Source: Clostridiales bacterium
GTDB lineage: Bacteria; Bacillota; Clostridia; Peptostreptococcales; Anaerovoracaceae
Assembly (NCBI GenBank): GCA_009778945.1
Contig: WRFF01000001.1
Span: forward strand, 1-41,600
Reading direction: 5' to 3'
DNA length: 41,600 nucleotides
Shown here: in pieces, positions 14,448-37,747 of the stretch
Layout: every line of letters begins with the position of its first letter
How positions within the stretch are numbered: position 1 is the first letter of the stretch
Program-made: the position numbers and the translations under genes
Notes under the pieces: generated by a model
Database searches by the model: none
The model's input: the letters and a program-made list of their open reading frames with translations, nothing else
Told to the model about the DNA's origin: nothing

Positions 14448-15509
14448 ATGTCAAAAGTCTTAATCATCGGCGGCGGCCTGGCCGGCGCCGTTACGGCAAA
14501 AGAATTGGCCTCTCAAAATGTTTCGGTGGTGATCGCGGAAGCCTCCGGCTCTTTTGGCGGCAAAGTGCGCGGTTACGGGTGCAAGTCCACGGACAAATGC
14601 GCGAACTGCGGGGTGTGCCTTACAAGGGGCCTGTGGGATTCCGTGGAAAATAACCCGCTTATTGAGATATTGCCGAATACACGGCTTGTTGACCTGATGG
14701 GGGGAAAGGGCTGTTTCACGGCGACGCTGAACACCGGCGGCGCGGTGAGCCCCATGGACGGCATCTCCGACGTGGTGGTCGCGACGGGTTTTGAGCAGAT
14801 GAAAAGAGAGCATGTCAACGCCTTCGTCGAACTGGACGGGGCGGGCCCGGACGACCGGTCCGTAATCACGGGAAGCGACATCGAAAGAATATTCCTGAAT
14901 CGCAGCAAGACGCGTCTGTTTGACCGGGCGCCCGAGCGGATCGCGTTCATCCAATGCTACGGTTCGAGGGACGCGAAGGAAAGGGCCATGTATTGTTCGC
15001 GCGTATGCTGCGGGTATTCGACAAGAGCCGCCAAGGTTATAAAAAATTATTATCCGGACTGTGAAATCACATTTTTTTATATGGAAATGCAGCAGGTGCG
15101 CGGCGGGAATTATTTCGACGAACTCAAAGAGCTCGGTATACGGTTCATCAAGTGCCGGCCGGTCAAGATCCAGGCGGGGGATCCCGCGTCCGTATGGTTT
15201 GACAACCCCGATACGGGGCGCCGCGAAAGACTTGATTTTGACGGAATCGTGCTGAGCGACGGAATACGGCCTTCGGACGGCGCTGCCAGGACCGCGGAGC
15301 TGTGCGGGCTCGGCCAAACCGAAGACGGATTCTTGCGCTATGTTACGGACAGCGGCGACGCGGAACGGACAGGCGTATATATAGCAGGCTGCGCGGGCGG
15401 CCCGGCGCGCATCGAAGAGGTATACGGCGAGTCCGTGGCGGTGGCGCAGCGCATCCTTTTTCAAAAAGAAGCGCCGATTGAAAAAACGGAAAACGGGAGC
15501 GGTGAATGA
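14448..15509 (+). CDS. Minimal HdrA-like FAD oxidoreductase (thioredoxin-reductase-like core only)
   Basis: 353 aa. VLIIGGGLAGA dinucleotide motif, IAFIQCYGSRD...YCSRVCCGYS and GVYIAGCAGGPARIEE are HdrA hallmarks. It has no ferredoxin-type CxxCxxCxxxCP domains. Confidence 0.75.
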   Translation: MSKVLIIGGGLAGAVTAKELASQNVSVVIAEASGSFGGKVRGYGCKSTDKCANCGVCLTRGLWDSVENNPLIEILPNTRLVDLMGGKGCFTATLNTGGAVSPMDGISDVVVATGFEQMKREHVNAFVELDGAGPDDRSVITGSDIERIFLNRSKTRLFDRAPERIAFIQCYGSRDAKERAMYCSRVCCGYSTRAAKVIKNYYPDCEITFFYMEMQQVRGGNYFDELKELGIRFIKCRPVKIQAGDPASVWFDNPDTGRRERLDFDGIVLSDGIRPSDGAARTAELCGLGQTEDGFLRYVTDSGDAERTGVYIAGCAGGPARIEEVYGESVAVAQRILFQKEAPIEKTENGSGE

Positions 15510-16921
15510 TGAACGCGCTGATTCTGGGCAATAACAAAATAAACGCAGAGGCCGCAAGGGTTCTTGCGGAAAGCGGCGTCGGCGCGGAGGTTTTGACGGA
15601 TGTTTCCGAAATCCTGAAATTCTCCGGCGAACCCGGCGGTTACACCGTTGTGACGCAGGACGGGACGGCCCGCTTCACCTCCGTGATCGTAACGGAGCCG
15701 CCGCGTTATGCCGCCGTAGAGGCGGACGGAGGGACATCCGTCTGCCTGGCGGACGAGGCGGAGACAGAACGCCTTTTCGATCCGAAAAGGCGCGACAAGA
15801 TCCTGATTCTGCTCGATTTCGCCGAAGAAACTCCCGAATACCTGGCGGCAAAGGCCGTCCGGCTTGCAGCCCGCCTCGCGAAGGACAAAAAAGACGTTGT
15901 ATTCCTGTCCAAAACCGTGAAAAGCGGCTACGGAGACGGCGAACTTTGCGACAGAGAGGCGAGAAACGCCGGCGTACAGTTCGTGAAATACGAGAAGGCG
16001 TCGGTTCGCTACGATGCCGGGGAAGATATCTTTTGCGTTGAGGCGAATGACGGCGTATTTGAAATCAGCCTTCGATCGCCGTTTCTCGTCACCGCCGGTT
16101 TTGAGGAATCGGGCCAACTCAAGCGCATCGCGAAAAAATTGCGCGTGCGCGGGAGTACGAAAGACGGGATAAACGACGACAGGTTTTTCCTGTACAGCGC
16201 GTTTACGCTGCGCCGCGGGATTTATTATCTGAATCCCGCCCTGACCGCTGGAGACGAGAAACAAAGGGTGAAAGAGGCCCTGCAGCCCCTGATGGAGGAT
16301 ATGGCCTCGATCGGGGCGGACGGCTATGTAAGGGAAATCATCCGGGGCATGGAGATACCGGAAGTCGATCCGAATAAATGTGCGTTTTGCTATTCCTGTT
16401 ACCGGGCCTGCCCGCACGGAGCGCTCGAACCGGACGGCAAAGCCTCCGCGATGAAGGTGATCGAGCCGCTTTGCCAGGCCTGCGCCATCTGCGAAGCGAT
16501 CTGCCCCGCCCAGGCAATCAGCCGGACGGGTGGCGGACCCGCGCCCGCGGGCGGGGGAAAATGTAAGATTTATCTCTGCGAAAACGGCGCGGCCGAAGCG
16601 TTTGACGAAATACTGCCGTCGCTTGGCGACCGCGGGCGCCTGATCGATAGCGTGCGGATTTCCTGCGGAGGAAGCGTGGGGGCCGAATTGCTGACAGGTG
16701 ATTTTAAAGATTATGAGACCGTCATCGTCGCGTGCTGCGTGGAAGATGCATGCCGCCATATGGACGGAGACAAGCGCGCGTGCAAGCAGACGGGGCGCGT
16801 CGCGAATCTCCTGAACAAGGCGGGCCTCGGCGGCAAACACGCCCATGTGATCCATACTTCCCTCGCGATGAAAGACGTGATGAAAGAACAACTGACGCAT
16901 ATACTGGAGGAATCAAATTGA
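15506..16921 (+). CDS. Fusion protein: degenerate HdrA-like N-domain + 2x[4Fe-4S] ferredoxin domain + MvhD-like C-domain
   Basis: 471 aa. The N-terminus ALILGNNKINAEAA sits where GxGxxG is expected. CAFCYSCYRACP and CQACAICEAICP are ferredoxin motifs. The C-terminal IYLCENG...ISCGG...VACCVEDACRH is collinear with the MvhD encoded at 23380. ATGA overlap with the upstream gene. Confidence 0.65.
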   Translation: MMNALILGNNKINAEAARVLAESGVGAEVLTDVSEILKFSGEPGGYTVVTQDGTARFTSVIVTEPPRYAAVEADGGTSVCLADEAETERLFDPKRRDKILILLDFAEETPEYLAAKAVRLAARLAKDKKDVVFLSKTVKSGYGDGELCDREARNAGVQFVKYEKASVRYDAGEDIFCVEANDGVFEISLRSPFLVTAGFEESGQLKRIAKKLRVRGSTKDGINDDRFFLYSAFTLRRGIYYLNPALTAGDEKQRVKEALQPLMEDMASIGADGYVREIIRGMEIPEVDPNKCAFCYSCYRACPHGALEPDGKASAMKVIEPLCQACAICEAICPAQAISRTGGGPAPAGGGKCKIYLCENGAAEAFDEILPSLGDRGRLIDSVRISCGGSVGAELLTGDFKDYETVIVACCVEDACRHMDGDKRACKQTGRVANLLNKAGLGGKHAHVIHTSLAMKDVMKEQLTHILEESN

Positions 16922-17601
16922 TAGTAGCCGAACAAAAACCGATCGATGAGCTCATCCGGTCGCTCGAAGGTTTCAAGAAGATCGTGATTGCTTCCTGCGG
17001 GACCTGCGTGACGGTATGCATGTCCGGCGGCGAGAAAGAGGCGCTGGCCGTGCAGGGCCTGCTGGAGGCAAACGCAAAGGAAAAAGGGCAAGACATTTCC
17101 GTTTCGGTCGTCGATCTGAAACGGCAGTGCGACGATGAATTTATAGATGATCTGGAGGCGGAGCTGCTGGACGGGGATGTGGTCCTTTCGATGGCCTGCG
17201 GCGTGGGCGTCCAGTTCCTGGCCGGAAAATATGCGGACAAGGTGGTGCTGCCCGGCCTCAACACGACGTTTTACGGCGCGGCGAAAGAACTGGGTTATTG
17301 GACGGAGCTGTGCGCGGGATGCGGAAACTGCCTGCTCGAAAGGACCGGCGGCATCTGCCCGATTGCCCGCTGCTCCAAAAGCATTTTCAACGGGCCTTGC
17401 GGCGGGTCGCAAAATGCCAAATGCGAGATCGACAGCGAGATCGACTGCGCCTGGCAATTGATTTACGACAAACTGACCGCCATGGGCCGGCTCGACACGC
17501 TTCTGGAGATCCATGAAATACGTGACTGGAGCACGAGCCGCGACGGCGGCCCCCGCCACCTCCGTAAAGATGACGTCAATCTGGACGATGCCGGGAAATA
17601 G
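16918..17601 (+). CDS. metV: MetV, small cysteine-rich subunit of methylene-THF reductase (MTHFR_C domain)
   Basis: 227 aa from the TTG at 16918 (GGAGG 6 nt upstream; overlaps the preceding TGA). Contains SCGTCVTVC and CAGCGNCLLERTGGICPIARCSKSIFNGPCGG. Confidence 0.8.
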   Translation: MIVAEQKPIDELIRSLEGFKKIVIASCGTCVTVCMSGGEKEALAVQGLLEANAKEKGQDISVSVVDLKRQCDDEFIDDLEAELLDGDVVLSMACGVGVQFLAGKYADKVVLPGLNTTFYGAAKELGYWTELCAGCGNCLLERTGGICPIARCSKSIFNGPCGGSQNAKCEIDSEIDCAWQLIYDKLTAMGRLDTLLEIHEIRDWSTSRDGGPRHLRKDDVNLDDAGK

Positions 17602-17611
17602 GAGGGGCCGC

Positions 17612-18529
17612 ATGGAAACCGAAAAAAGCAATCTGCAAAAGATGCTCGAAGCCGGGGAATTCGCGATCACGGCGGAAATCGGGCCGCCGATGAGCGCGGA
17701 CGGAGAGACCGTCCGTGAGAAGGCCCGGGAGCTGAAAGGGAACGTGGATGCCGTCAATGTGACGGACAACCAAACCTCAATCGTGCGCATGTCGTCTATC
17801 GGCGCGTCCTGTCTGGCGCAGTCGGAGGGCGTCGAGTGCGTCATGCAAATGGTCATGCGGGACAGAAACCGCATTGCGCTGCAAAGCGATCTTTTAGGCG
17901 CGTGGGCGATGGGGCTGAAAAATCTGCTTGTGCTGTCCGGCGACCATCAGTCGTTCGGGAACCATCCGGGCTCCAAAAATGTTTACGACGTGGATTCCAT
18001 CCAGTTCCTGCAGGCCGTCACGAACCTGCAGGAAAACGGCGTGTTCATCGGCGGCAGCAAATGCAAGGCCCCGCCGCATTTCTTCCTGGGCTCTACAACC
18101 AATCCTTTTGCGGACCCGGAGCCGCTCCAGTTGATCCGGCTTGAAAAAAAGATCAACGCCGGCGCGAAATTTATTCAGACGCAATGCGTGTACGACCTCG
18201 AACGGTTTGAACGCTTTATGGAAAAGGTACGCGAGCGCGGCTTGCACGAACGGGCTTATATAATGGCCGGTATCTTTGTGAACAAATCCCTGAAGTCGAT
18301 CCAGATGACCCAGCAGGTGGCGGGGATGAGCGTGCCCGACTCCTATGTGAAGAGATTCGAGGAGGCGGAGGACAAGCAGGCGGAGGGCGTTGAGATAGCC
18401 GTGGAGCTTGTGAAAAAGCTGCGGACTGTCAAAGGCATAAAAGGCATACATATCATGGCCGTCGGCTGGGAAGAAATCGTGTCTACGGTAATCCGGCAAG
18501 CGGGGTTTTTGCCGAGGCCGGTAGTATAG
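17612..18529 (+). CDS. metF: Methylenetetrahydrofolate reductase, catalytic subunit
   Basis: 305 aa from the ATG at 17612 (AGGAGG upstream). FAITAEIGPP...VNVTDNQ...LVLSGD...YDVDS motifs fit the MTHFR TIM barrel. Confidence 0.88.
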   Translation: METEKSNLQKMLEAGEFAITAEIGPPMSADGETVREKARELKGNVDAVNVTDNQTSIVRMSSIGASCLAQSEGVECVMQMVMRDRNRIALQSDLLGAWAMGLKNLLVLSGDHQSFGNHPGSKNVYDVDSIQFLQAVTNLQENGVFIGGSKCKAPPHFFLGSTTNPFADPEPLQLIRLEKKINAGAKFIQTQCVYDLERFERFMEKVRERGLHERAYIMAGIFVNKSLKSIQMTQQVAGMSVPDSYVKRFEEAEDKQAEGVEIAVELVKKLRTVKGIKGIHIMAVGWEEIVSTVIRQAGFLPRPVV

Positions 18530-18542
18530 GAAGGTGCGGAAA

Positions 18543-18923
18543 ATGAATGATTTTAAAAATGACGTAAGGAACACCCCCGGCGGCGCAAACGTACTGAACT
18601 GCTTTCTCTGCGGCTCCTGTACGGCGTGCTGCCCGGTCAATGAAATCGACGACGATTACAATCCGCGCAAAATCATGCGCATGGTCCTGTTGGATATGGA
18701 GGACGATGTGCTGAAGTCGGATGAAATCTGGAAATGCAACCAATGCCATGCGTGCGTCGCACACTGTCCGCAGGACGTGCGCTTTGCCGACATCGTGCGC
18801 GCGCTTCGGGAAATTTCCATCGAACGGGGCTTTCGTGACGAGGCCCTGCTTGCAAAAGTACGGGAATACGACGAAGAGCTGAAACGGCAAAGGCTTGAGA
18901 AAATCAAGGAGGAACTGGCGTGA
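18543..18923 (+). CDS. hdrC: HdrC-like 2x[4Fe-4S] protein (short form)
   Basis: 126 aa. CFLCGSCTACCP and CNQCHACVAHCP match the HdrC-type pattern. The ATG at 18543 has AGGAAGG upstream; an alternative GTG lies at 18534. Confidence 0.7.
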   Translation: MNDFKNDVRNTPGGANVLNCFLCGSCTACCPVNEIDDDYNPRKIMRMVLLDMEDDVLKSDEIWKCNQCHACVAHCPQDVRFADIVRALREISIERGFRDEALLAKVREYDEELKRQRLEKIKEELA

Positions 18924-21900
18924 AAAAACCGGTTATGGTAGTCGGCGGCGGGATCGCCGGAATCCAGGCCTCCCACAATCTGGCCGAGATGGGTGTCCCG
19001 GTATTTTTGGTGGAATCGTCCCCGTCCATCGGCGGCCGGATGGCGCAACTGGACAAGACTTTTCCCACGAACGATTGCTCGGCGTGCATCCTGGCGCCGA
19101 AAGTGACGGAGTGTTTCAATCATCCGCTGGTGAAGACGCTCTCTTACAGCGAGGTCGTCGAGATCAAGGGCGAGGCGCCCGATCTGACCGCGGTTATTCG
19201 CCGCAAACCGCGCTTTGTGGACGAAGCGGCGTGCACCGGGTGCAATGACTGTTTCGAGTCCTGCCCCGTGACGGTAAAATCCGAATTCGATATGGGGATG
19301 GGCGACCGCAAGGCTATCTATAAGCCGTTTGCGCAAGCCGTGCCGAACAAAGCCGTGATCGACAAGAAGGGCACGTCGCCGTGCAAATTCGATTGCCCCG
19401 CGTATATGGACGCGCACGCGTATGTCACGCTTGTGGGCGCCGAAAAGTATGAGGAAGCGCTTGGCGTGATACGGCGCACGACGCCGTTTGCGGGCGTGCT
19501 CGGGCGCGTATGCGTCCATCCGTGCGAGTCGAACTGTTCGCGCCGGTTTGTGGAAGAGCCTGTCTCTATCGCGTCGCTGAAAAGGTTTGTGTCCGACCAG
19601 GTAAAAGCGCAGGGCGGCCTGAGCCCGCTTGAGATCAAGGCGAAGCCGAAGGAAAAGAAAGCCGCCGTGATCGGCGCGGGCCCGTCGGGCCTGAACTGCG
19701 CGTACAAACTGGCGCAGGCCGGCTATGGCGTTACGGTATTTGAGGCGCTGCCCGTTCCCGGCGGCATGCTGAAAGTGGGCATCCCGGACTACCGGCTGGA
19801 TAAAGATATTTTGGCCGAAGAGATCCAATTGATCGAGGATATGGGCGTCGAGATCAAACTCGGGAAGGCGCTCGGGAAGGATTTCACGCTGGCGCAGCTC
19901 AGGGAGGAAGGATACGGTGCCGTGTATGTGGCGATCGGCGCGCACAAGGACCAGCGCCTCGGCATTCCCGGCGAGGACGCGGAAGGCGTGATCTCTTCGG
20001 TCGAGTTCCTCCGGGACGTCAATTTGGGCGGCAGAACGAAGCCCGGCCAAAAAGTGCTTGTGATCGGCGGCGGGGACGTCGCGATGGACGCGGCGCGCTC
20101 GGCGCTCCGGCTCGGGTGCGACGTGACGGTTGTCTACCGCCGCAGCCAGAGCGAGATGCCCGCGGCCGAACTGGAAATAGAACACGCCACGGACGAGGGC
20201 GTACAGTTTATGTATCTGACCGCACCGGCGGAAGTGATCGTAAAAGACGGCCGGCCGGCCGGTCTGAAATGTGTGAAAAACAAGCTCGGGGCGAAGGACG
20301 CGAGCGGCCGCAGAAGGCCTGTGCCGATAGAGGGATCGGAATTTACCCTCGACGCGGACTGCATTATCTACGCGGTCGGGCAGCGCGCGGAGCGGGAGAA
20401 ACTGCTCGAAGCGGGCCTTGATATTTTTAACGAAAAGGGCGCCATGGTTTGCGACCGCGCCACCGCGAAGACGAATATGGACGGTATTTTTGCGGGCGGC
20501 GACGGCAGCCGCGCCCCGACGACCGTGATCGAGGCCATTGCGGACGGCAACCGGGCCGCGAACGCGATTATCAATTATCTGGAAGGCTCGGAACTTCCGC
20601 TGGACCCGTTCGTCCTGCCGCAGACAAACATCGAGGAAGTCGATACGCGCAGTTTCAGCGCAAACGCGCGCGCGCGGATGCCTTTGATCGCTATGAAACG
20701 CCGCAGGACAACCTTTGACGAGGTGGAGGCCGGCTATACGAAAGAAGAGGCGGTGTATGAGGCGAAGCGGTGCGTCGACTGCTCGATTTGCTGCGAATGC
20801 CAGCTTTGCGTACAGGCCTGCAAGGCAAACGCCCTGTACCACGAGCAGCACGAAACGATCGTCGAGATCCCTGTCGCGTCGGTGGTCTTTTCGTCGGGCT
20901 ATGACGCGACGGCAGAAATACCAACAGGTTTCGGGTACGAGCGGTACCAAGACGTCGTGACAAGCCTGGAATATGAACGCATCCTGTCCGCGGGCGGGCC
21001 TTACACAGGCCATGTCCAGCGGCCCTCCGACGGCCGTCCGCCCGAGCGGATCGCGTTTATTCAGTGCGTCGGTTCCCGCGACGCTTCCTGCGGCAACGAT
21101 TATTGCTCGTCCGTATGCTGCATGTATGCGATCAAAGAGGCAATGATCACGAAGGAACACCTTACCACAGTCAAGGATATCGACATCTATTATATGGATA
21201 TGCGCGCGTTCGGTAAGGATTTTGATAAGTATATCGATTCGGCCAAGGAAAAATACCATATCGGGTTCATCCGCAGCCGCATCGGGGGCATTGAGGAAAA
21301 TCCGGAGAACGGGCGCCTCGCGCTGCGGTATGTCGCGGAGAACGGCAGGGGAATGTCGGCCGAGTACGATATGGTGGTGCTTTCCGTCGGGATGAAGCCG
21401 AACGCGGAAAATGTGAAACTTCTGTCCAGGATCGGCGTCAAGACCGATAAATACGGCTTTGTATGGTCGAACGAGTTCAATTCGCCTGTTACGAACAAGG
21501 AAGGGTTCTACGCGTGCGGCGTGGCCGCGGGCCCGAAAGATATCCCCGAAACGGTCATTGAGGCGAGCGCGGCCGCCGCCGCCGCGGCAAAGGACGCCGG
21601 GCTGCGCGAGATCGATTTATATGAGGATTACAGCGCGTTTTTCAAGGACGAACCGCTGCCTCCGATGCGCGACGTTTCAAAAGAACCGATCCGGATAGGC
21701 GTGTTCATCTGCCACTGCGGCGTAAACATCGCCGGGTATGTGGGCGTGGACGACGTTGCCGAATACGCGAAGGCACTGCCGTTTGTCGAGCATGTCGAAA
21801 CCAACCTCTATACCTGTTCGATCGATTCGCAGGCGGCGATCGCGGAGAAGATACAGGAATATAACCTGAACCGTGTCGTCGTCGCGTCGTGTACGCCGCG

Positions 21901-23383
21901 CACCCATGAACCGCTGTTTCATGGGATGATGAGAAGGGCCGGGCTCAATCCCTATCTTTTCACGATGGCCAATATACGCGATCAATGTTCCTGGGTCCAT
22001 ATGGACAACAACGAGATTGCGACCCATAAGGCGAAAGATCTGGTGCGCATGGCGGTCGGCAAGGTGACGTATGCAAAGCAGCTCACGCGCAAGAAGATTG
22101 ACGTGACTAAATCCGCACTCGTCATAGGCGGCGGCGCGGCCGGCCTGGCAGCGGCGCTGAGCGTTGCGGAGACGGGCTATCCCGCTTATCTGATCGAGCG
22201 TACGGATGCGCTCGGTGGGAACGCGGCCCGGGTCGCCACAAGCAATCTCGGCAGGCCCGTATCCCCTTACGTGCGGGAACTGATCGAAAAAGTCAGCAAC
22301 CATCCGCTGATCACCGTTTTCCTGAACACCACCGCGGAGTCTACGGAAGGCTTTGTGGGCAATTTCAAGACGGCGCTCAAAAGCGGCGATCTGACGCACG
22401 AGGTCGAACATGGCGTTGTCATCGTCGCGACCGGGGCAAACGAGCGGAAGCCGGACGAGTATCTGTACGGAAAAGATAAGCGCGTTATGACGATGCTGGA
22501 GTTTGAGAAATTTGCGGAAAACGGATTCGCGGACCTGAAAGCGAAAAAGGTCGTGATGATCCAGTGCGTCGGGTCCCGTGAGGGCGACCGCCCGTACTGC
22601 AGCCGCGTCTGCTGCAACCAGGCGGTGAAAAACGCGATCCTGCTGAAAGACCTGGATCCCGAAATTGAGGTGACGATCCTGTACCGCGAGATTCGGACAT
22701 ACGGGCTGAACGAGCTGAATTATGTCGAAGCCCGCAGGAAGGGCGTGCGGTTTGTGCTTTACGACGTGGAGCGGAAGCCGGTTGTGACGAAGGCCAAAGG
22801 TAGCCTGAAGGTGACGGTTTTCGAGCCGCGCCTCGGGAAAGAAATCGAGCTGGAGGCGGATCTGCTCGCGCTCAGCTCCGCCATCGTGGCCGACGCGGAA
22901 AACAACAAGCAAATCGCGCAGATGTTCAAAGTGCCGCTGAATCAGGAAAATTTCTTCCTCGAGGCGCACGTGAAACTCCGTCCGGTCGATTTTGCGACGG
23001 AAGGCGTGTATCTGTGCGGGCTGGCGCATTCGCCGAAGTCCATAAAGGAAAGCATTATACAGGGCCGCGCCGCGGCCGGCCGCGCGATGACGGTCATAGC
23101 CAAAGAGCAGCTTGAAACCGAAGGCATGATCGCGTTTGTCGATCCGAACCTCTGCGTCGCGTGCGGCGCGTGCGTGGAAGTCTGCGCCTATAACGCGGTC
23201 GAGATACAGGACGTACCCGTTCGCGGCGGCACGGTCAAACGCGCGGTGGTGAACGACGTCCTGTGCAAAGGCTGCGGAACGTGCTCGGCTACCTGCCGAT
23301 GCGGCGCGATCGACGTGAACGGATTCTTGGATAAACAGGTGCTCTCCGAGATCGAGTACCTGCTGCGCCGGAGCGCAATATGA
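18920..23383 (+). CDS. hdrA: Giant HdrL-type protein: HdrA module 1 interrupted by a GltD/NfnB-like NAD(P)H-FAD module (~19380-20585), then a complete HdrA module 2 (~21680-23383)
   Basis: 1487 aa. VMVVGGGIAGIQ...TFPTNDCSACILAPK (HdrA). CPAYMD...GRVCVHPCESNC...AAVIGAGPSG...VLVIGGGDVAMD...FAGGD (GltD-like). IAFIQCVGSRD...CSSVCC. Then IGVFICHCGVNIAGYV...ALVIGGGAAGL...MIQCVGSRE..YCSRVCC...CVACGACVEVC/CKGCGTCSATC. GTGA overlap with hdrC. Confidence 0.85.
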   Translation: MKKPVMVVGGGIAGIQASHNLAEMGVPVFLVESSPSIGGRMAQLDKTFPTNDCSACILAPKVTECFNHPLVKTLSYSEVVEIKGEAPDLTAVIRRKPRFVDEAACTGCNDCFESCPVTVKSEFDMGMGDRKAIYKPFAQAVPNKAVIDKKGTSPCKFDCPAYMDAHAYVTLVGAEKYEEALGVIRRTTPFAGVLGRVCVHPCESNCSRRFVEEPVSIASLKRFVSDQVKAQGGLSPLEIKAKPKEKKAAVIGAGPSGLNCAYKLAQAGYGVTVFEALPVPGGMLKVGIPDYRLDKDILAEEIQLIEDMGVEIKLGKALGKDFTLAQLREEGYGAVYVAIGAHKDQRLGIPGEDAEGVISSVEFLRDVNLGGRTKPGQKVLVIGGGDVAMDAARSALRLGCDVTVVYRRSQSEMPAAELEIEHATDEGVQFMYLTAPAEVIVKDGRPAGLKCVKNKLGAKDASGRRRPVPIEGSEFTLDADCIIYAVGQRAEREKLLEAGLDIFNEKGAMVCDRATAKTNMDGIFAGGDGSRAPTTVIEAIADGNRAANAIINYLEGSELPLDPFVLPQTNIEEVDTRSFSANARARMPLIAMKRRRTTFDEVEAGYTKEEAVYEAKRCVDCSICCECQLCVQACKANALYHEQHETIVEIPVASVVFSSGYDATAEIPTGFGYERYQDVVTSLEYERILSAGGPYTGHVQRPSDGRPPERIAFIQCVGSRDASCGNDYCSSVCCMYAIKEAMITKEHLTTVKDIDIYYMDMRAFGKDFDKYIDSAKEKYHIGFIRSRIGGIEENPENGRLALRYVAENGRGMSAEYDMVVLSVGMKPNAENVKLLSRIGVKTDKYGFVWSNEFNSPVTNKEGFYACGVAAGPKDIPETVIEASAAAAAAAKDAGLREIDLYEDYSAFFKDEPLPPMRDVSKEPIRIGVFICHCGVNIAGYVGVDDVAEYAKALPFVEHVETNLYTCSIDSQAAIAEKIQEYNLNRVVVASCTPRTHEPLFHGMMRRAGLNPYLFTMANIRDQCSWVHMDNNEIATHKAKDLVRMAVGKVTYAKQLTRKKIDVTKSALVIGGGAAGLAAALSVAETGYPAYLIERTDALGGNAARVATSNLGRPVSPYVRELIEKVSNHPLITVFLNTTAESTEGFVGNFKTALKSGDLTHEVEHGVVIVATGANERKPDEYLYGKDKRVMTMLEFEKFAENGFADLKAKKVVMIQCVGSREGDRPYCSRVCCNQAVKNAILLKDLDPEIEVTILYREIRTYGLNELNYVEARRKGVRFVLYDVERKPVVTKAKGSLKVTVFEPRLGKEIELEADLLALSSAIVADAENNKQIAQMFKVPLNQENFFLEAHVKLRPVDFATEGVYLCGLAHSPKSIKESIIQGRAAAGRAMTVIAKEQLETEGMIAFVDPNLCVACGACVEVCAYNAVEIQDVPVRGGTVKRAVVNDVLCKGCGTCSATCRCGAIDVNGFLDKQVLSEIEYLLRRSAI

Positions 23384-23871
23384 AAGGGGCGTCTTCCATG
23401 AAAGAAAACGAGAAGAAAACGCCGAACAAAGACTGGGACCCGGTCATCGTCGCCTTTTTGTGCACCTGGTGCTCGTACTCTGGGGCGGATCTTGCCGGAA
23501 CGAGCAGGTTGCAATACCCGCCGAATATCCGCATCATCCGCGTGCCGTGCTCGGGGCGCATCAATCCGCTCTATATTATAAAGGCGCTGACGGAAGGCGC
23601 GGACGGCGTCATGGTGTCGGGCTGCCATCCTGGCGACTGCCACTATTTGGCGGGCAATCTGTTTGCGCGCAGGCGTTTTGTCGTATTGAAAAAACTGCTT
23701 GAAACCTGCGGCCTGAATCCGGATCGCGTCCAGTTCACCTGGGTTTCGGCGTCGGAAGGCGGAAGGTTCGCGGAAGTGATCAAAGAGGTCACGGCCAATG
23801 TCAAAAAGATCGGCCCGAACAGGATTGTGCCGGGGTTCGCGGAAGACTGCAAGGAGGCGAGCGCCGAATGA
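23380..23871 (+). CDS. mvhD: MvhD/FlxD-like hydrogenase iron-sulfur subunit (FlpD family)
   Basis: 163 aa. VAFLCTWCSYSGADLAG...IRIIRVPCSGRINP...GADGVMVSGCHPGDCHY. ATGA overlap with the upstream gene. Confidence 0.85.
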   Translation: MKGASSMKENEKKTPNKDWDPVIVAFLCTWCSYSGADLAGTSRLQYPPNIRIIRVPCSGRINPLYIIKALTEGADGVMVSGCHPGDCHYLAGNLFARRRFVVLKKLLETCGLNPDRVQFTWVSASEGGRFAEVIKEVTANVKKIGPNRIVPGFAEDCKEASAE

Positions 23872-24725
23872 TTTATGAAGAGATGACAAAACAGATAAGG
23901 GAGGCCGCAAAAAGGCTTCTCAAAGAAGGCGCCGTCGACGTGATTTTGGCGTACCGGGGCGGAGGCCTGAACGAAATGCAAGTCCCGTTCTTCGTAAAGA
24001 AACCGGAGGACGCGGAGCTGATTGAATGGGGCGACCGCTGCTATCAGAACCTTGCGCCCTATGTACACGGGCTGAATAAAAAAGTCGGGATCCTGGCAAA
24101 ACCCTGCGACGTCCGCGCTATCGTGCAGTACATCACGGAATTTCAGATTGAACGCGACAAGGTAACGATTATCGGCGTGGACTGTATCGGCATGGTGGAT
24201 GAAAACGGAAACGCCCGGCCGGGCTGCAGCGAATGCCGCGTGCATAAACCGCCGGTTTACGACGAATACATCCGGGACGAACGGGCGGCGAACCTGCCGG
24301 CAATCGAACCGAAGGCCGGGGAAACGACGCTGGAAGAAAACCTGGAGCGTTTCCAGAAGGAGATTGACAAATGCATCCTGTGTTACTCCTGCCGCCAAGC
24401 CTGTTACGGCTGCTATTGTAAAACCTGCTTCATCGAGCGCGATATGCCGGATTGGCAGCCCGCGGAGATCGATACGGGTACGAAAATAACCTTTCACATG
24501 GGCCGCGCGATGCATCTCGCCGGGCGCTGCGTCGACTGCGGCGCGTGCGAGGCCGCATGCCAGTCGGGCGTCAATGTGCGGTATATCATCCGCGAAGTCA
24601 CGAAATTCATCGAGGACGCTTACGGATACAGCGCGGGAATGGATGCGGAGGAGCCGCCCGCATTGCTGACAAATAAATTTGACGACAAAGAGTTCGGTTT
24701 TTTGGGAGGTGAGCGACATGAGTGA
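23868..24725 (+). CDS. FlxB/FlxC-like iron-sulfur protein related to sulfhydrogenase beta / AsrA
   Basis: 285 aa. CILCYSCRQACYGCYCKTC plus CVDCGACEAACQSG have the same cluster layout as the next gene (CQSCGICTYVCPTCHC / CTGCGRCIRSCPAG). ATGA overlap. Confidence 0.5.
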   Translation: MIYEEMTKQIREAAKRLLKEGAVDVILAYRGGGLNEMQVPFFVKKPEDAELIEWGDRCYQNLAPYVHGLNKKVGILAKPCDVRAIVQYITEFQIERDKVTIIGVDCIGMVDENGNARPGCSECRVHKPPVYDEYIRDERAANLPAIEPKAGETTLEENLERFQKEIDKCILCYSCRQACYGCYCKTCFIERDMPDWQPAEIDTGTKITFHMGRAMHLAGRCVDCGACEAACQSGVNVRYIIREVTKFIEDAYGYSAGMDAEEPPALLTNKFDDKEFGFLGGERHE

Positions 24726-25701
24726 AGCCGCGATCAAGCTGACAAAGGGCGAACTCGAAAAAATGCTGGCCGCTTTGATGCGCGACAGAACGGTATTCGC
24801 TCCGGGGTCGACCGGCGCGAAGCTGGAATATCTGCCCGTGGATGACGTCTCCGACATCGTGTTCGGTGACGAGCTTCCCTACAAATCCCCCAAGGATGTT
24901 TTTTTCCCGAGGTGCGAAAAGATCGTCACGTTCTCGGAGAACGGGGCGGAGGCCGAACTGCCGGAAACGCAGACGGTTCTGTTCGGCGCGCGCCCTTGCG
25001 ACCTGGAAGCGCTCGATATGCTGAAGACGATCCTCACGCAGGGCAAGTTCAAAGACCCGTTTTTCGCGGCGCGCTATGAGAACGCGCTGATCATCGGGCT
25101 GGCCTGCGCGGAGAAAAAACCGGGGTGCTTCTGCGACCAGCGCGAGACCGATCTGGACTACAGTGAAAAATGTGATCTGTTTTTGAGGGCGGACGGCGAC
25201 AAATTTGAAGTGCTGTACGTTTCCGATAAGGGAAAAAAAGCGCTGGGCGCGCATATCCCGGGGCTGGAACAGTTCAAAAATACCCCGAGGGAATTCCGGC
25301 CTGCGGAGACGCTTTCTTTGGACGCGGCCGAAGATGACCTGTTTACCAAAATCGACTGGGAAGAAATCACGGAGACCTGTCAGAGCTGCGGTATCTGCAC
25401 CTATGTCTGTCCGACCTGTCACTGCTTCATGTTTAAAGACGTGGAGGAGGACGATAAGGCATATCGGTACAGAAACTGGGATAGCTGCATGTTCCCGAAA
25501 TTTACGCTTCACGCTTCCGGGCACAATCCGAGGGCGGCGAAACGCGAACGCTATCGCCAGCGCGTTGCGCACAAATACGTGTATATCAAGGAAAACTTCG
25601 GCATGACCGCCTGTACCGGCTGCGGCAGATGTATCCGGAGCTGCCCCGCCGGCATGAGCATCAAAACGGTGGTCGAAGGGATCCGGGAGGAGCTTCAATG
25701 A
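24718..25701 (+). CDS. AsrA / sulfhydrogenase-beta / FlxB-like 2x[4Fe-4S] protein
   Basis: 327 aa from the ATG at 24718 (GGAGGTG upstream; 8-nt overlap with the upstream gene). CQSCGICTYVCPTCHCF...NWDSCMF...RYRQRVAHKY...CTGCGRCIRSCP. Confidence 0.7.
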   Translation: MSEAAIKLTKGELEKMLAALMRDRTVFAPGSTGAKLEYLPVDDVSDIVFGDELPYKSPKDVFFPRCEKIVTFSENGAEAELPETQTVLFGARPCDLEALDMLKTILTQGKFKDPFFAARYENALIIGLACAEKKPGCFCDQRETDLDYSEKCDLFLRADGDKFEVLYVSDKGKKALGAHIPGLEQFKNTPREFRPAETLSLDAAEDDLFTKIDWEEITETCQSCGICTYVCPTCHCFMFKDVEEDDKAYRYRNWDSCMFPKFTLHASGHNPRAAKRERYRQRVAHKYVYIKENFGMTACTGCGRCIRSCPAGMSIKTVVEGIREELQ

Positions 25702-26537
25702 ATATGAACCCCTATCTTCCGCTGAAGGCGGAAATCGTGGATATCGTCCAGGAAACGACCGATTCGGAGCTCGATGTCAAAACCTACGCGCTGAAGCTCG
25801 GCGGCGGCGCGAAGATGGAGTTTATGCCCGGCCAGTTTGTGGAGCTTTCTGCCCCGGGCGTGGGCGAGGCGCCGTTCGGCTTCGCGTCCAATCCTCTCCG
25901 AAACGACACGATCGAAATCTCAATCAAGCGGACCGGGATGGTGACGGACGCGATCCACTCGCTCGAAATCGGCGACAGCATTTTTATTCGCGGGCCTTTC
26001 GGAAACACCTTTCCGGTGAAAGGGCTCGAGGGAAGCGATATCCTGTTTATTGCGGGCGGGCTCGGGCTTGCGCCGCTCCGTCCGCTCATCACTTATATCT
26101 TCGAGGAGGAAAACCGCGCAAAATACGGAAAGATACAGATGCTGATTGCCGCGCGCACACCCACGGATTTCATCTTTTTCCGCGATTATGCGGAATGGCG
26201 CAAAATAAAAGACGTAGAGATCACGCTCACGATCGACAACGAGGTCCCGAACTGGGCCGAACGGGTCGGGTTCCCGCACAATCTGGTTACGGAGATGTCG
26301 TTTGATTTGGAGAAGACTTATGCGGTTCTGTGCGGCCCGCCGATCATGATCAAAGCGGTTTCCCAAAAGCTCATGGAGATGGGGATGCCGCAGGACCGCA
26401 TTCTGACGACGCTGGAAATGCGTATGACCTGCGGCGTCGGGAACTGCGGGAAATGCAATATCGGCCATCAGTACGTATGCGTGGACGGGCCTGTCTTCAG
26501 CCTCGCGGAGCTGGAGGGAATGCCCGATGAGTATTGA
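25698..26537 (+). CDS. AsrB / sulfhydrogenase-gamma / FlxA-like FAD-NAD(P)H oxidoreductase with a C-terminal [2Fe-2S] site
   Basis: 279 aa. FMPGQFVELS, ILFIAGGLGLAPL, CGPPIM and C-terminal CGVGNCGKCNIG..VCVDGPVF. ATGA overlap. Confidence 0.75.
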   Translation: MNMNPYLPLKAEIVDIVQETTDSELDVKTYALKLGGGAKMEFMPGQFVELSAPGVGEAPFGFASNPLRNDTIEISIKRTGMVTDAIHSLEIGDSIFIRGPFGNTFPVKGLEGSDILFIAGGLGLAPLRPLITYIFEEENRAKYGKIQMLIAARTPTDFIFFRDYAEWRKIKDVEITLTIDNEVPNWAERVGFPHNLVTEMSFDLEKTYAVLCGPPIMIKAVSQKLMEMGMPQDRILTTLEMRMTCGVGNCGKCNIGHQYVCVDGPVFSLAELEGMPDEY

Positions 26538-29271: not shown

Positions 29272-29296
29272 GAAGCATTGATTGAGGAGCCCGAAG

Positions 29297-29740
29297 ATGA
29301 ATAAAGAAAACCTTCTGGATACCTTGCTGGCGCGTCAAAACGCCAGCAAGGAAGGGTATCTGGACCGTGAAGCGATCGCCGCTGTCGCGGAAGAATTCGC
29401 GATGCCGGAAACGAGGGTGTTTGAGATCGCTTCCTATTACGCGATGCTCGAAATCGAGCCGCAGGCAAAATACGTGTTGGAGATTTGCAACTCGACGCCC
29501 TGTTATTTTTCGAAGTCGAATGAAGTCGCGGCCTGGGTCGAAGGCGAACTGGACGTAAAGCCCGGCGACGTCACAGGCGACGGCTTGTTCAGTTGGCATT
29601 ACACGCCTTGCGTAGGGGCATGTGATATCGGCCCTGTGATCAAGGTTCGGGATACGGTGTACGGTGATCTGACAAAGGAAACAGTTCACGCGCTGATTCA
29701 GGATCTCAGAAATGCGAAAAATGGCAAAAAATTTCGGTAA
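29297..29740 (+). CDS. NuoE/HydC-like [2Fe-2S] subunit associated with the formate dehydrogenase
   Basis: 147 aa. ICNSTPC...YTPCVGACDIGPV is the thioredoxin-like 2Fe-2S motif. The last ~7 codons (KNGKKFR*) lie inside the left arm of the palindromic element. Confidence 0.8.
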   Translation: MNKENLLDTLLARQNASKEGYLDREAIAAVAEEFAMPETRVFEIASYYAMLEIEPQAKYVLEICNSTPCYFSKSNEVAAWVEGELDVKPGDVTGDGLFSWHYTPCVGACDIGPVIKVRDTVYGDLTKETVHALIQDLRNAKNGKKFR

Positions 29741-29829
29741 TGGACGATTTTATTGCAAAAAAGGCCGCGAAAAGACAAATAACGGCGATATTCAGGGTGA
29801 AATTCATCCATTACCGAAAAAAAATTGCC
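29723..29829 (+). repeat. Palindromic element copy between the nuoE-like and nuoF-like genes (arms 29723-29751 / 29800-29829)
   Basis: GGCAAAAAATTTCGGTAATGGACGATTTT ... AAATTCATCCATTACCGAAAAAAAATTGCC, with a 12-bp perfect core (TTCGGTAATGGA). The spacer is homologous to the spacers at 34213-34259 and, in reverse complement, at 1199-1243. Confidence 0.75.
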
Positions 29830-29874
29830 AAAAACTAACTCGCTTCTGTTATTACAATAAATGGAAAGGACGTT

Positions 29875-31143
29875 GTGCAAATAATGAATAAAGAACCTGT
29901 TTTGCTGAAGCGGATAGGGAAAATGCGGGATCCCGCGTCGGTGGAGGAATATACCGGCCTGGGCGGGTTTGCTGCGCTCCGTAAGGCCGTCCAGATGGAT
30001 AAGGAAGATATCCTGAAGGAAATCGACACCGCCAACCTGAGAGGGCGCGGCGGCGCGGCCTATCCGGCCGGCCGCAAATGGCGCCAGCTTTATGGGATCG
30101 AAGGGACCCCGAAATATATCGTGTGCAACGCCGACGAGGGCGAGCCGGGGACGTTTAAAGACAAGGTGCTTTTGGAGAAGGACCCGCTCAGCGTCATCGA
30201 AGGCATGCTGGTCGCAGCCTGTGTATTCGATTCGCCGGAAGGCTTTATCTATATCCGCGGCGAGTATCACACGGTCCGGCAGGCGTTCCAAAAGGCCGTC
30301 GACAGCGCGGCGGCGGCCGGGTTCCTCGGAAAAGACATCCTGGGCGTCAAAGGGTTTGACTTTACGATCACGATCGTATCGGGGGCCGGCGCCTATGTCT
30401 GCGGCGAGAATTCGGCGCTTCTGAACTCCATCGAAGGGAAGACGGGGCGCCCCCGCGTCAAACCCCCGCACCTGGCTGAGGTCGGTTTGAATCAGAAACC
30501 TACGCTTGTGAACAACGTCGAGACGTTCGCCTGTATCCCGGTTATTTTGAATATCGGCGGAAAGGCGTTTCTTGAGATGGGGGCCGAGGACGGGGGCGGC
30601 ACGAAGCTTGTTTCGATCTCGGGGCACCTGAAAAATCGCGGGGTGTTTGAAGTGCCGCTCGGCACTCCGTTCGAGGATGTGCTCTACGCGGAGGAATATG
30701 GCGGCGGGCCTTTCGAAGGCAAGCCGATCAAATTTCTGCATTTGGGCGGGCAGTCGGGGCCGCTTGCGTTTCCGGAGCAAATAGGCGGCGCGTACAGTTA
30801 TAAGGGCCTTGAAGACAAAAAGCTGGCGATCGGGTCCGGCGCTATCGTGGCCATGGACGAGAGCGTCAGCGTTGTGGAATATTCGAAAAAGGTGATGGAA
30901 TTCTTTGTCTACGAATCCTGCGGCAAATGCACCCCGTGCCGTATCGGGACGACCCGGATACTGGAACTGCTTGAGGATTTTGTGAGCGGCGCTGCGGAAA
31001 AAGGGGACATCGAGAAACTCGACGCCATGCTGACGCAGGTGATGGCCTTGTCCGCCTGCGGGCTGGGACAGACCGCGGGCGTGGCCGTACGGTCGGCGCT
31101 CACCCATCGGCGGGCCGAATTTGAGGCGCGTATCAGCGGGTAA
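29875..31143 (+). CDS. NuoF-like NAD(H)/FMN/[4Fe-4S] subunit, minimal form without extra ferredoxin domains
   Basis: 422 aa. RGRGGAAYPAGRKW, CNADEGEPGTFKD, ESCGKCTPCRIGT and LSACGLGQ. The start is ambiguous (GTG 29875 or ATG 29884). Confidence 0.85.
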   Translation: MQIMNKEPVLLKRIGKMRDPASVEEYTGLGGFAALRKAVQMDKEDILKEIDTANLRGRGGAAYPAGRKWRQLYGIEGTPKYIVCNADEGEPGTFKDKVLLEKDPLSVIEGMLVAACVFDSPEGFIYIRGEYHTVRQAFQKAVDSAAAAGFLGKDILGVKGFDFTITIVSGAGAYVCGENSALLNSIEGKTGRPRVKPPHLAEVGLNQKPTLVNNVETFACIPVILNIGGKAFLEMGAEDGGGTKLVSISGHLKNRGVFEVPLGTPFEDVLYAEEYGGGPFEGKPIKFLHLGGQSGPLAFPEQIGGAYSYKGLEDKKLAIGSGAIVAMDESVSVVEYSKKVMEFFVYESCGKCTPCRIGTTRILELLEDFVSGAAEKGDIEKLDAMLTQVMALSACGLGQTAGVAVRSALTHRRAEFEARISG

Positions 31144-31234
31144 AAAGCCGGTCAGGAGAAGCGCATGAAGGAAAGGGTATATAGCTGCGAAAACTCATTT
31201 TATGTGGGAATTGGAAGCTGTTGGAGGTAAACTG

Positions 31235-33964: not shown

Positions 33965-34053
33965 ATGTAATACTGCTTCTAAGGAAACACTGATTAAATC
34001 TCTGGAACATATCTGCGATGTTATTTAGCCCAAACCCTTCGTTGGAAATACTC

Positions 34054-34080
34054 GCTTTGCAACCAGCAAAGCTCCGTTTT
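34054..34080 (+). terminator. Weak terminator-like hairpin after fdhA
   Basis: GCTTTGC-aacca-GCAAAGC followed by TCCGTTTT. Confidence 0.3.
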
Positions 34081-34183
34081 CCGCCTCGATTTTGTGCAAA
34101 ATCCCTATCGCAGATACATACCGTTTCTTTAAGCAACGCTTCCCTAAGCAAAAAAGTTGCGTGCAGAGAAATGCGAGAAAAAT

Positions 34184-34289
34184 AGCACAAAATGGCGGTT
34201 ATGTATGATTTTATTGCGAAAAAAGCTGAAAAAAGGGTGAATAAGGGTGTTTCGGAGGCAAAATTCATACATAACCGCAATTTTGTGCT
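34184..34289 (+). repeat. Palindromic element copy upstream of fdhD (arms 34184-34212 / 34260-34289)
   Basis: AGCACAAAATGGCGGTTATGTATGATTTT ... AAAATTCATACATAACCGCAATTTTGTGCT: a nearly perfect ~29-bp stem around a 47-nt spacer. Confidence 0.8.
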
Positions 34290-34335
34290 AAAAAACAGCT
34301 CCGCTGCTGCCAAAATAACAAGTGGTATGCGATAA

Positions 34336-37735: not shown

Positions 37736-37747
37736 TTTGCTCTCCCG

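Follow-up and report, generated by a model that had tools for sequence, protein, structure and literature searches.

A fused HdrA pair with an NfnB-like insert, HdrL, encoded beside metVF in a Clostridiales bacterium: candidate core of an NADP(H)-linked methylene-tetrahydrofolate reductase

What could a single protein of 1487 residues, made of two HdrA-type modules and a GltD-like NAD(P)H unit, do in the middle of a Wood-Ljungdahl operon? This question is raised by the gene hdrL, which lies in the first 41,600 nucleotides of contig WRFF01000001.1 of a Clostridiales bacterium (assembly GCA_009778945.1); this whole stretch is called the window hereafter. A preliminary description, made from the sequence, had presented the gene as a tandem HdrA of the HdrL type with a GltD/NfnB-like unit inserted into the first HdrA. 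Our analysis suggests that HdrL, together with the [2Fe-2S] adaptor MvhD encoded next to it, could be the central part of a bifurcating or confurcating methylene-tetrahydrofolate (methylene-THF) reductase complex that is NADP(H)-linked and has no HdrB. Deriving the electron path from the topology of related solved systems, we assign this reading a probability of about one half.

The gene (18920..23383, plus strand, as are all the hdrL features below) is a single unbroken open reading frame (ORF) in the ORF list of the window, as previously described, and it starts with a GTG that overlaps the stop codon of the preceding HdrC-like gene. This long start is credible because an AAGGAGG box lies 7 nt upstream of the GTG; a gene caller elsewhere had chosen an ATG five codons downstream (P0001, 1482 aa). 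The predicted product has a mass of 161.8 kDa, has no convincing transmembrane segment and appears soluble in a simple 19-residue hydropathy scan (maximum 1.77, with the strongest windows on the Rossmann and ferredoxin motifs). A protein search returned more than 100 homologues of 1450-1540 aa, from many independent assemblies, which align to it over its whole length and are 48-78% identical. In the set of species-representative genomes, relatives are encoded in 598 stretches, and each of the best 80 loci spans residues ~1-1487. There is thus virtually no chance that the fusion is an assembly or sequencing artefact joining separate hdrA, gltD and hdrA genes, a possibility raised in the preliminary description: 109 further full-length homologues of 1440-1545 aa from independent assemblies align over all three junctions, the same single gene is present in 80 species genomes, complete genomes among them, and the junction motif C618-C634 is invariant in the 110-sequence alignment. 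HdrL of the window is a real, intact redox protein of a named family.

This family was named in 2009 in Desulfobacterium autotrophicum for a "heterodisulfide reductase/glutamate synthase fusion" followed by mvhD, and was thought to be unique to that organism (PMC2702500). The window gene fits this definition, being an HdrA/GltD fusion followed by mvhD, so that its earlier assignment to the HdrL-type architecture was correct. Indeed, HdrL1-3 of D. autotrophicum HRM2 and Sfum_0824, the HdrL found in the proteome of sulfate-grown Syntrophobacter fumaroxidans, are likewise large soluble HdrA/glutamate-synthase fusions with a NAD(P)H site, always with mvhD after them, and homologues from Desulfobacterota, 44-50% identical, have the same architecture over the whole of residues 1-1487. 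The window protein differs from them in having a cysteine, not a selenocysteine, at position 56, and its gene belongs to a metVF operon in a Clostridia-like organism instead of neighbouring dsr or hdrABC. Contrary to the 2009 view of a one-organism gene, HdrL is widespread. According to the names in the source records, its carriers include Clostridia-type Bacillota, Desulfobacterota, Anaerolineae, Planctomycetota, Aminicenantes, Latescibacteria and SAR324, to which the source names of the protein search add Synergistales and Synergistaceae. Cultured carriers include Pelotomaculum propionicicum, Desulfotruncus arcticus, Desulforhabdus sp. TSK, strain NaphS2 and Anoxybacterium hadale. The closest relative (78% identity) belongs to the metagenome-assembled genome "Spirochaetes bacterium Th196P1bin3", in which the gene order is identical to that of the window.

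Compared with the solved HdrA of Methanothermococcus thermolithotrophicus (5odc_A), HdrL aligns in four stretches (E=1.8e-185): residues 6-150, 624-834, 923-1095 and 1334-1485 align to residues 147-291, 293-504, 3-175 and 506-653 of 5odc_A, respectively. Both modules carry the marks of an HdrA flavin domain (GxGxxG and C-x(n)-C-x3-CC), and neither unites all four HdrA domains, which are divided between the two. Module 1 (aa 1-905) consists of the HdrA flavin domain and the inserted ferredoxin domain, and lacks the N-terminal and C-terminal domains of HdrA. Its flavin adenine dinucleotide (FAD) domain, thioredoxin-reductase-like, comes in two parts. The first (18920..19204, aa 1-95; 5odc_A 147-291) contains the GxGxxG motif G9-G14 within VMVVGGGIAGIQ (aa 5-16) and, within TFPTNDCSACILAPK (aa 47-61), the TFPTNDCxxC pair C53 and C56, equivalent to Cys194 and Cys197 of HdrA. 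The second (20858..21634, aa 647-905) contains the [4Fe-4S] ligands C716/C729/C733/C734, in the strings IAFIQCVGSRD and CSSVCC (aa 711-734), and Lys739, the equivalent of HdrA Lys409. Between them lie the two halves of the inserted ferredoxin domain, each with an invariant set of cysteines: C105-C108-C111-C115 in half one (19205..19372, aa 96-151) and C624-C627-C630-C634 in half two (20789..20857, aa 624-646; 5odc_A 293-303). The NfnB/GltD-like insert (19373..20788, aa 152-623) sits between these two CxxCxxCxxxC motifs, splitting the domain.

Module 2 (aa 921-1487) has the N-terminal cluster domain as well as the ferredoxin domain at the C-terminus, and lacks both the Cys pair and the inserted ferredoxin domain. 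Searched alone, it aligns to HdrA 3-234 and 318-653, skipping the inserted ferredoxin domain (235-317). The N-terminal cluster domain (21680..22084, aa 921-1055; 5odc_A 3-146) includes IGVFICHCGVNIAGYV (aa 926-941) and the invariant C931, C933, C966, C991 and C1023. It is followed by the FAD domain (22085..23119, aa 1056-1400), with its own GxGxxG motif G1070-G1075 (GGGAAG, aa 1070-1075), the ligands C1216/C1227/C1231/C1232 in MIQCVGSRE and YCSRVCC (aa 1213-1232), and Lys1237, and then by the C-terminal 2x[4Fe-4S] ferredoxin domain (23120..23380, aa 1401-1487), in which one CxxCxxCxxxC motif occurs at aa 1412 and another at aa 1449. At the position of the Cys pair, module 2 has ATSNLGRPVSPY, and the 110-sequence alignment contains no Cys at aa 1100-1121. 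Lys1237, the counterpart of Lys739, is K in 64 and R in 45 of the 110 aligned sequences.

The motif strings quoted in the preliminary description were all found at the given places in the translation, and the domain boundaries that it put at nt 19380, 20585 and 21680 agree with the limits obtained from hidden Markov models and PDB matches (NfnB core, aa 152-558; start of module 2, aa 921-923). Two details changed. The claimed extent of the insert is right for the core, aa 152-558, but the true end lies at ~aa 623 (nt 20788) and not at nt 20585. Likewise, CVDCSICCECQLCVQAC (aa 618-634), taken as the motif with which module 1 resumes, is HdrA-type in C624-C634, but its C618 and C621 belong to an NfnB-type cluster.

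For the insert, matches were obtained to the NfnB proteins of Thermotoga (4ylf_B, 1.2e-88) and Pyrococcus (5jca_L), and even stronger ones to the NfnB-like modules of Bfu-type NfnA (9bov_A, 1.8e-129; 9n5u_A) and StnC (8oh5_C, 9.8e-110). With this group of proteins (4ylf, 5jca, 8oh5, 9bov, 9n5u) it shares the fold, both Rossmann motifs, the YRR signature for NADPH and the cluster ligands, the CE motif among them, at 40-44% identity. The cluster ligands of the insert are C155, C159, C198, C202, (E203) and C206, the stretch GRVCVHPCESNC corresponding to aa 195-206, plus C618 and C621 in a permuted segment (aa 591-622). The FAD Rossmann motif is at G252-G257 (AVIGAGPSG, aa 249-257) and the NADPH Rossmann motif at G383-A388 (VLVIGGGDVAMD, aa 379-390), followed by Y406-R407-R408. 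The latter signature is common to the NADPH-using relatives of the insert, and we take it to mean NADPH specificity here.

The order of the segments within the insert is not that of NfnB, in which the CxxC segment is N-terminal. The N-terminal stretch of NfnB (RRRNFEEV...EAQRCLQC, residues 12-43) aligns to HdrL 591-622, i.e. after the core, and the insert is therefore circularly permuted relative to NfnB. The same order, core first and CxxC segment last, is found in StnC (8oh5_C) and in the Bfu-type NfnA (9bov_A and 9n5u_A); unlike NfnB, the HdrL unit is moreover inserted in another domain. Both ends of the insert meet at its own Fe-S domain, which suits insertion into a loop, and C618/C621 precede C624-C634 by two residues, so that the NfnB-type and HdrA-type clusters are adjacent in sequence. 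In a subfamily of homologues of ~1300 aa (P0100, P0104, P0106, P0108, P0110), the equivalent of ~residues 350-485/535 of the window protein, which form the Rossmann subdomain with which the insert binds NAD(P)H, is missing and the remainder is conserved.

The AlphaFold2 model of residues 1-927, computed from a 50-sequence alignment, had a mean predicted local distance difference test (pLDDT) value of 86.6 and a predicted template modelling (pTM) score of 0.81. In this model the insert superposes on NfnB with a target-normalised template modelling (TM) score of 0.81-0.82 and a root-mean-square deviation (rmsd) of 2.1-2.2 A over ~420 columns. Coherently with the 4ylf_B match and the invariant ligands and motifs, the superposition bears out the GltD/NfnB small-subunit fold on which the preliminary description had staked its claim. 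When the insert is left out, the same model matches the HdrA core with a TM of 0.88, in an alignment spanning 903 columns: as modelled, residues 1-927 are an HdrA fold split by an insert. An insert-deleted construct (1021 aa) gave a pLDDT of 83.0 and a pTM of 0.84, the latter suggesting a defined arrangement of modules 1 and 2; in it, module 1 reached a TM of 0.95 (rmsd 1.9 A) against the HdrA core and module 2 a TM of 0.77 against full-length HdrA.

How the two modules could work together is indicated by the distribution of the HdrA domains. In the HdrA of methanogens, the cluster of the N-terminal domain in each protomer is completed by Cys197 of its partner (PMC9012536). In HdrL, C53/C56 are invariant in module 1 and have no counterpart in module 2, and the N-terminal domain is found at aa 921-1055 only. 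Since the Cys pair is in module 1 and the N-terminal domain in module 2, the two are complementary halves of an asymmetric HdrA "dimer". The pseudo-dimer of the preliminary description thus gains indirect support, by a reasoning that was published for the fused HdrAs of anaerobic methanotrophic (ANME) archaea and is seen at work in the structure of BamE.

Both design principles have precedents. In ANME archaea, Chadwick et al. (2022) described an NfnB-like insertion of ~500 aa in the inserted ferredoxin domain of HdrA9-11, and fused HdrA3/4 in which the N-terminal domain and Cys197 are complementary between the halves (PMC9012536). HdrL resembles these variants in the insert site and in the complementarity, and differs in that both features, described in separate ANME proteins, occur in one chain, and in that the module order of the fused HdrAs is reversed, the Cys197-type unit coming first. 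Furthermore, the window protein is bacterial and its partner is MetVF, while the ANME-1 proteins were only speculatively tied to NADPH from MetF. The second precedent is BamE of the class II benzoyl-CoA reductase of Geobacter metallireducens, shown by cryo-electron microscopy to be a fused HdrA dimer in which bifurcation takes place only at the flavin beside the CxxC pair and the Lys, the other flavin being structural; its inserted ferredoxin domain is the low-potential exit and the MvhD-like BamF the entry (bioRxiv 10.64898/2026.04.10.717634). HdrL shares with BamE the HdrA pair fused in one chain, the first flavin domain with CxxC pair and Lys, and the MvhD-like adaptor. An NfnB-like insert is absent from BamE. 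There, the low-potential branch leads to the tungsten subunits BamBC and the high-potential one to the HdrD-like BamD and electron transfer flavoprotein, and the position at the second flavin that is Lys or Arg in module 2 of HdrL is occupied by Gln.

In total, HdrL contains ligand sets for ~nine [4Fe-4S] clusters, all conserved. The inserted and the C-terminal ferredoxin domains account for two each, a further two are of the NfnB type, the N-terminal domain has one, and each module has a C-x(n)-C-x3-CC cluster. Its flavin sites, by sequence, are two FAD-type Rossmann folds of the HdrA type and one NfnB-type FAD/NADPH unit. All putative cluster ligands, both Rossmann glycine sets, C53/C56 and Lys739 are invariant in the 110 full-length members. 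In bifurcating HdrA-type flavins, the Lys409 equivalent of Lys739 faces the flavin N5 (bioRxiv 10.64898/2026.04.10.717634). As regards C56, encoded in the window by codon 19085-19087, 32 of 78 related hdrL loci have at this codon an in-frame TGA (motif FPTNDCAM*, e.g. at 10133-10159 of the NaphS2 locus L074), which indicates selenocysteine. The replacement of Cys56 by selenocysteine in relatives singles out the Cys pair of module 1 as redox-critical. The hdrL genes of the selenocysteine type will come out truncated or split from gene callers.

The flavin of module 2 is less likely to be a second bifurcation site: this module has neither Cys pair nor inserted ferredoxin domain, and its Lys varies with Arg. 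The modules also differ in descent. The flavin core of module 1 is 47% identical to methanogen HdrA, that of module 2 35-37%, and the two cores are 28% identical to each other. A neighbour-joining tree places all module 1 sequences with methanogen HdrA and separates them from every module 2 sequence, the internal branching of both clades being similar. The low identity and the tree rule out a recent internal duplication of one HdrA; together with the similar branching, they fit one old fusion of diverged paralogues followed by co-evolution.

Then, we considered with which genes hdrL travels. The counts that follow refer to the best 80 of the 598 stretches (species loci), searched by tblastn with the window proteins, and are biased towards close relatives and long contigs because these are the 80 best-scoring loci. 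The mvhD gene lies directly 3' of hdrL in 75 of the 76 loci with enough downstream sequence, and metV and/or metF are adjacent to hdrL in 45/80. In some loci metV/metF are upstream of hdrL, as in the window; in 35 they are downstream, in the order hdrL-mvhD-metV-metF typical of Desulfobacterota, and the operon of NaphS2 reads metF'-hdrL(Sec)-mvhD-metV-metF, Sec standing for selenocysteine. Hence HdrL-MvhD is the constant unit and MetVF its commonest partner. Many Desulfobacterota loci have, besides the metV-metF pair that follows mvhD, a second and shorter gene of the methylenetetrahydrofolate reductase family directly upstream of hdrL, as at L074 9054-9944 and in 24 other loci. At least one member of a trio encoding an FdhB-like protein and sulfhydrogenase beta-like and gamma-like subunits occurs in 25/80 loci; the gamma-like subunit is present in 19-25/80, and FdhB-like and beta/gamma genes follow mvhD in ~20-25/80, some of them without metVF. 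A CCG-motif HdrB/HdrD-like ORF, detected with a regular expression as proxy, lies within 6 kb of hdrL in 18/80 loci and in none of the window-type loci.

In the window, hdrL is the sixth gene of a 10-gene unit, encoding in order a short HdrA, an Fd-MvhD fusion, MetV, MetF, an HdrC-like protein, HdrL, MvhD, an FdhB-like protein and the beta-like and gamma-like subunits, all on the plus strand. The same 10-gene unit is found in the complete genome of A. hadale, where it occupies ~185.1-197.6 kb of CP042469.1 (5477-17877 of locus L081), with unrelated genes at both borders. After it, the window encodes FolD, Fhs, NuoE/F-like proteins, FdhA and FdhD; with MetV, MetF, FolD, Fhs and Fdh around hdrL, the Wood-Ljungdahl setting claimed for the gene is confirmed.

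The unit opens with a short HdrA-like flavoprotein (14448..15509, 353 aa), which carries a Cys-rich motif of its own, CKSTDKCANCGVC, and has Arg where HdrA has Lys409, and continues with a protein of 471 aa (15506..16921) in which the C-terminal part of HdrA and a 2x[4Fe-4S] domain are fused to MvhD. These two genes occupy the same place in L001, L002, L006, L007, L015, L067 and L081, the last being A. hadale. The following ORFs, as listed, are metV (16732..17601; PF12225, 2.7e-35) and metF (17513..18529; PF02219, 5.1e-41). Their true starts are likely near 16930 and at the ATG at 17612 (~305 aa), respectively, since the A. hadale orthologues have 222 and 306 aa and the listed ORFs overlap their neighbours. 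A short HdrC-like 2x[4Fe-4S] protein of 129 aa (18534..18923; TIGR03290, 1.3e-22) precedes HdrL, and mvhD (23380..23871; PF02662, 2e-55) overlaps the hdrL stop codon.

The FdhB-like Fe-S protein (23868..24725, 285 aa) matched no Pfam or NCBIfam family above threshold; it gave hits to 9t1s_M (9.2e-25), 8rvu_E (4e-19) and 7bkb_E (2.4e-18), and over its residues 158-266 it resembles the Fe-S region at the C-terminus of the beta subunit of F420-type formate dehydrogenase in solved Fdh-Hdr complexes. This protein may be a docking or relay subunit for MvhD. The sulfhydrogenase beta-like Fe-S subunit (24679-25701; 9nez_B, 1e-37) and the gamma-like FAD/[2Fe-2S]/NAD(P)H subunit (25629-26537; 9nez_C, 1.2e-59) give this operon its second NAD(P)H/FAD/[2Fe-2S] module. 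Unlike in NfnAB, there is no clear NfnA partner: the gamma-like product is a distant relative of NfnA (4ylf_A, 2.8e-14), a far weaker match than that to the gamma subunit of Pyrococcus sulfhydrogenase I (1.2e-59).

HdrB, identified by its CCG domain, was not found in the window by Pfam, NCBIfam or a CCG regular expression, and HdrD was likewise not found among the window proteins. The one match of this expression, at 36485, was rejected as HdrB, as it lies in the antisense frame of the [FeFe]-hydrogenase gene. The comparison to make is with the "type IV" MetVF-HdrABC-MvhD reductase of Moorella thermoacetica and Sporomusa ovata, for which bifurcation or confurcation is suspected and the third substrate was unknown as of 2026. 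As in type IV, MetF, MetV, MvhD and an HdrA-type subunit are encoded together. Unlike type IV, the window has no HdrB, its HdrC is shortened to 129 aa, HdrL stands in place of HdrA, and the operon has in addition the short HdrA, the Fd-MvhD fusion, the FdhB-like protein and the diaphorase pair. The arrangement falls outside the four methylene-THF reductase types listed for acetogens.

In the proposed complex, HdrL and MvhD would serve the Wood-Ljungdahl pathway's methylene-/methyl-THF step in this operon, as an HdrB-less relative of the type IV reductase. By analogy to HdrA and BamE, the halves of HdrL would pack against one another in the manner of an HdrA dimer, and Cys56 (selenocysteine in relatives) would lie between the module 1 flavin and the N-domain cluster, completing the [4Fe-4S] cluster of the module 2 N-domain. 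The FAD of module 1 would be the bifurcating flavin, because it combines the invariant Lys739 with a pair that is Cys/Sec in relatives, both hallmarks of bifurcation being present in the sequence. Module 2 would mainly supply its N-terminal and C-terminal cluster domains, its flavin domain acting mainly as scaffold or relay. Electrons would enter via MvhD, here from NAD(P)H via the sulfhydrogenase gamma/beta-like pair and the FdhB-like protein. The high-potential electron would move from the C716 cluster to the HdrC-like protein, then to MetV and MetF; the low-potential one would run through the Cys pair, the N-domain cluster, the inserted ferredoxin clusters and the two NfnB-type clusters to the NfnB-type FAD, which would exchange hydride with NADP(H), the reaction going in either direction. 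NADP(H) would in this way be located where free ferredoxin docks in methanogen Hdr. As the insert lies in the branch that is the low-potential output of every solved HdrA system, NADP(H) may be an acceptor and not the donor that, in the tentative proposal of the preliminary description, could feed the bifurcating flavin directly.

Several points weigh against this proposal. No biochemical or structural study of any HdrL was found in the literature, of which our coverage is incomplete. Both modules keep FAD motifs and, in the window protein, the Lys, so a second active flavin is conceivable. NADP+ is an odd low-potential acceptor, having a standard potential equal to that of NADH. In StnC and the Bfu-type NfnA, the best solved matches of the insert, this unit is a plain NADPH entry wired through Fe-S clusters to a distant bifurcation site, which favours NADPH as donor. 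The Desulfobacterota operon, being only metF'-hdrL-mvhD-metV-metF, has no second pyridine-nucleotide module, and the wiring proposed for the window therefore cannot be general. Lastly, 35/80 loci have no metVF nearby.

The precedent of StnC and Bfu-type NfnA and the minimal operon, which offers no other donor module, lead to the alternative that survives best, a wiring of the Moorella type that we regard as possible, if somewhat doubtful. Here NADPH would be the donor at the NfnB-like FAD and would feed, through four clusters, the module 1 flavin, which would bifurcate to methylene-THF and to ferredoxin, the latter being reduced via the C-terminal ferredoxin domain or MvhD. The energetics would be balanced (-320 mV versus -200 and about -450 mV), and in sulfate reducers and acetate oxidisers the reaction would run in reverse, methyl-THF + reduced ferredoxin + 2 NADP+ giving 2 NADPH, which would solve the known problem of endergonic methyl-THF oxidation. 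However, the insert is placed in the inserted ferredoxin domain, through which low-potential electrons leave in Mvh-Hdr, Fdh-Hdr and BamE; the adaptor by which electrons usually enter, MvhD, has been kept; the FdhB-like protein and diaphorase pair after mvhD in the window resemble a separate entry module; and ferredoxin, according to published work, is not an acceptor for the Moorella enzyme. Our computations cannot separate this wiring from the topology-based one.

A bolder variant, which we consider unlikely, is a head-to-head join of an NfnB-type and an HdrA-type bifurcation module through the branches that normally end at free ferredoxin, with an internal wire replacing the ferredoxin. NADH would enter via the diaphorase pair, the FdhB-like protein and MvhD (2 NADH + methylene-THF + NADP+ -> methyl-THF + NADPH + 2 NAD+), and exergonic methylene-THF reduction would drive NADH-to-NADPH transhydrogenation. 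If true, the complex would be a fifth, ferredoxin-independent type of methylene-THF reductase, and the missing third substrate of the Hdr-type reductases would have a name.

It is improbable that HdrL does not bifurcate at all and is a long wire from NADPH to MetVF, its HdrA flavins being one-/two-electron converters or structural remnants. It is true that the reduction of methylene-THF by NAD(P)H, being exergonic, can do without coupling, that type III enzymes carry it out with an RnfC-like subunit, and that one of the two HdrA flavins of BamE is only structural; but ~1000 residues of HdrA machinery, with the Cys/Sec pair, Lys739, N-domain cluster and MvhD, are conserved over many phyla. Moreover, all biochemically characterised HdrA-MvhD systems in the cited papers bifurcate, the mechanism of the Moorella and Sporomusa type IV enzymes being unsettled.

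We give a similarly small chance to HdrL-MvhD being a general NADP(H)-linked hub whose partner is not MetVF but DsrC or another disulfide, reached via HdrBC or HdrD, with metVF merely co-regulated. HdrL was first proposed to route NADH electrons toward sulfite reduction (PMC2702500) and later to reduce DsrC. Coherently, a CCG-motif ORF stands near hdrL in the 18 loci mentioned above, and among the 35 loci missing metVF the diaphorase trio is present alone in 16. Against such a hub, the window has neither HdrB nor HdrD, metV-metF-hdrC'-hdrL are contiguous or overlapping, the unrelated borders of the A. hadale unit delimit these same genes, and metVF adjacency recurs in at least 2 different gene orders across phyla.

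As regards novelty, HdrL of the window belongs to a known, named and widespread family, and its separate design principles have already been published. The fusion architecture highlighted in the preliminary description is real, yet less novel than was implied there, given HdrL in 2009, the ANME proteins in 2022 and BamE in 2026. Fusions go unmentioned in a 2024 preprint on the evolution of HdrA, and we found nothing specific on HdrL-MetVF in papers on Desulfococcus, on Desulfatiglans and on haloalkaline as well as thermophilic acetate oxidisers; this coverage is incomplete and an earlier description is possible.

Further redox genes lie downstream in the window. Positions 29282-35097, adjoining Fhs and FolD, encode a NuoE-like [2Fe-2S] protein, a NuoF-like protein, a 920-aa FdhA and FdhD, which make up a formate dehydrogenase cluster that is NAD-linked and possibly bifurcating; FdhA has a NuoG-like N-terminus, is of the Cys type and contains no in-frame stop. 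The minus strand encodes the large subunit of an [FeFe]-hydrogenase (HydA, 35993-37735), a NuoF-like HydB (37748-39547) and, after it, probably HydC (39540-40043), which by their sequences make 35993-40043 an electron-bifurcating HydABC-type hydrogenase. A plus-strand ORF at 36104-38263 (719 aa) has no family match and is probably an antisense shadow of the hydrogenase genes.

The coupling of methylene-THF reduction to energy conservation is a long-standing gap in acetogen bioenergetics and, in the reverse direction, in that of acetate-oxidising sulfate reducers and syntrophs. An NADP(H) site built into the HdrA core, in a "dimer" that is asymmetric and fixed at 1:1, narrows the possible wirings. 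A widespread HdrB-less version of the Hdr-type enzyme exists and is recurrently tied to MetVF and, since the same operon is present in the cultured A. hadale and other relatives are in culture, the question is experimentally approachable.

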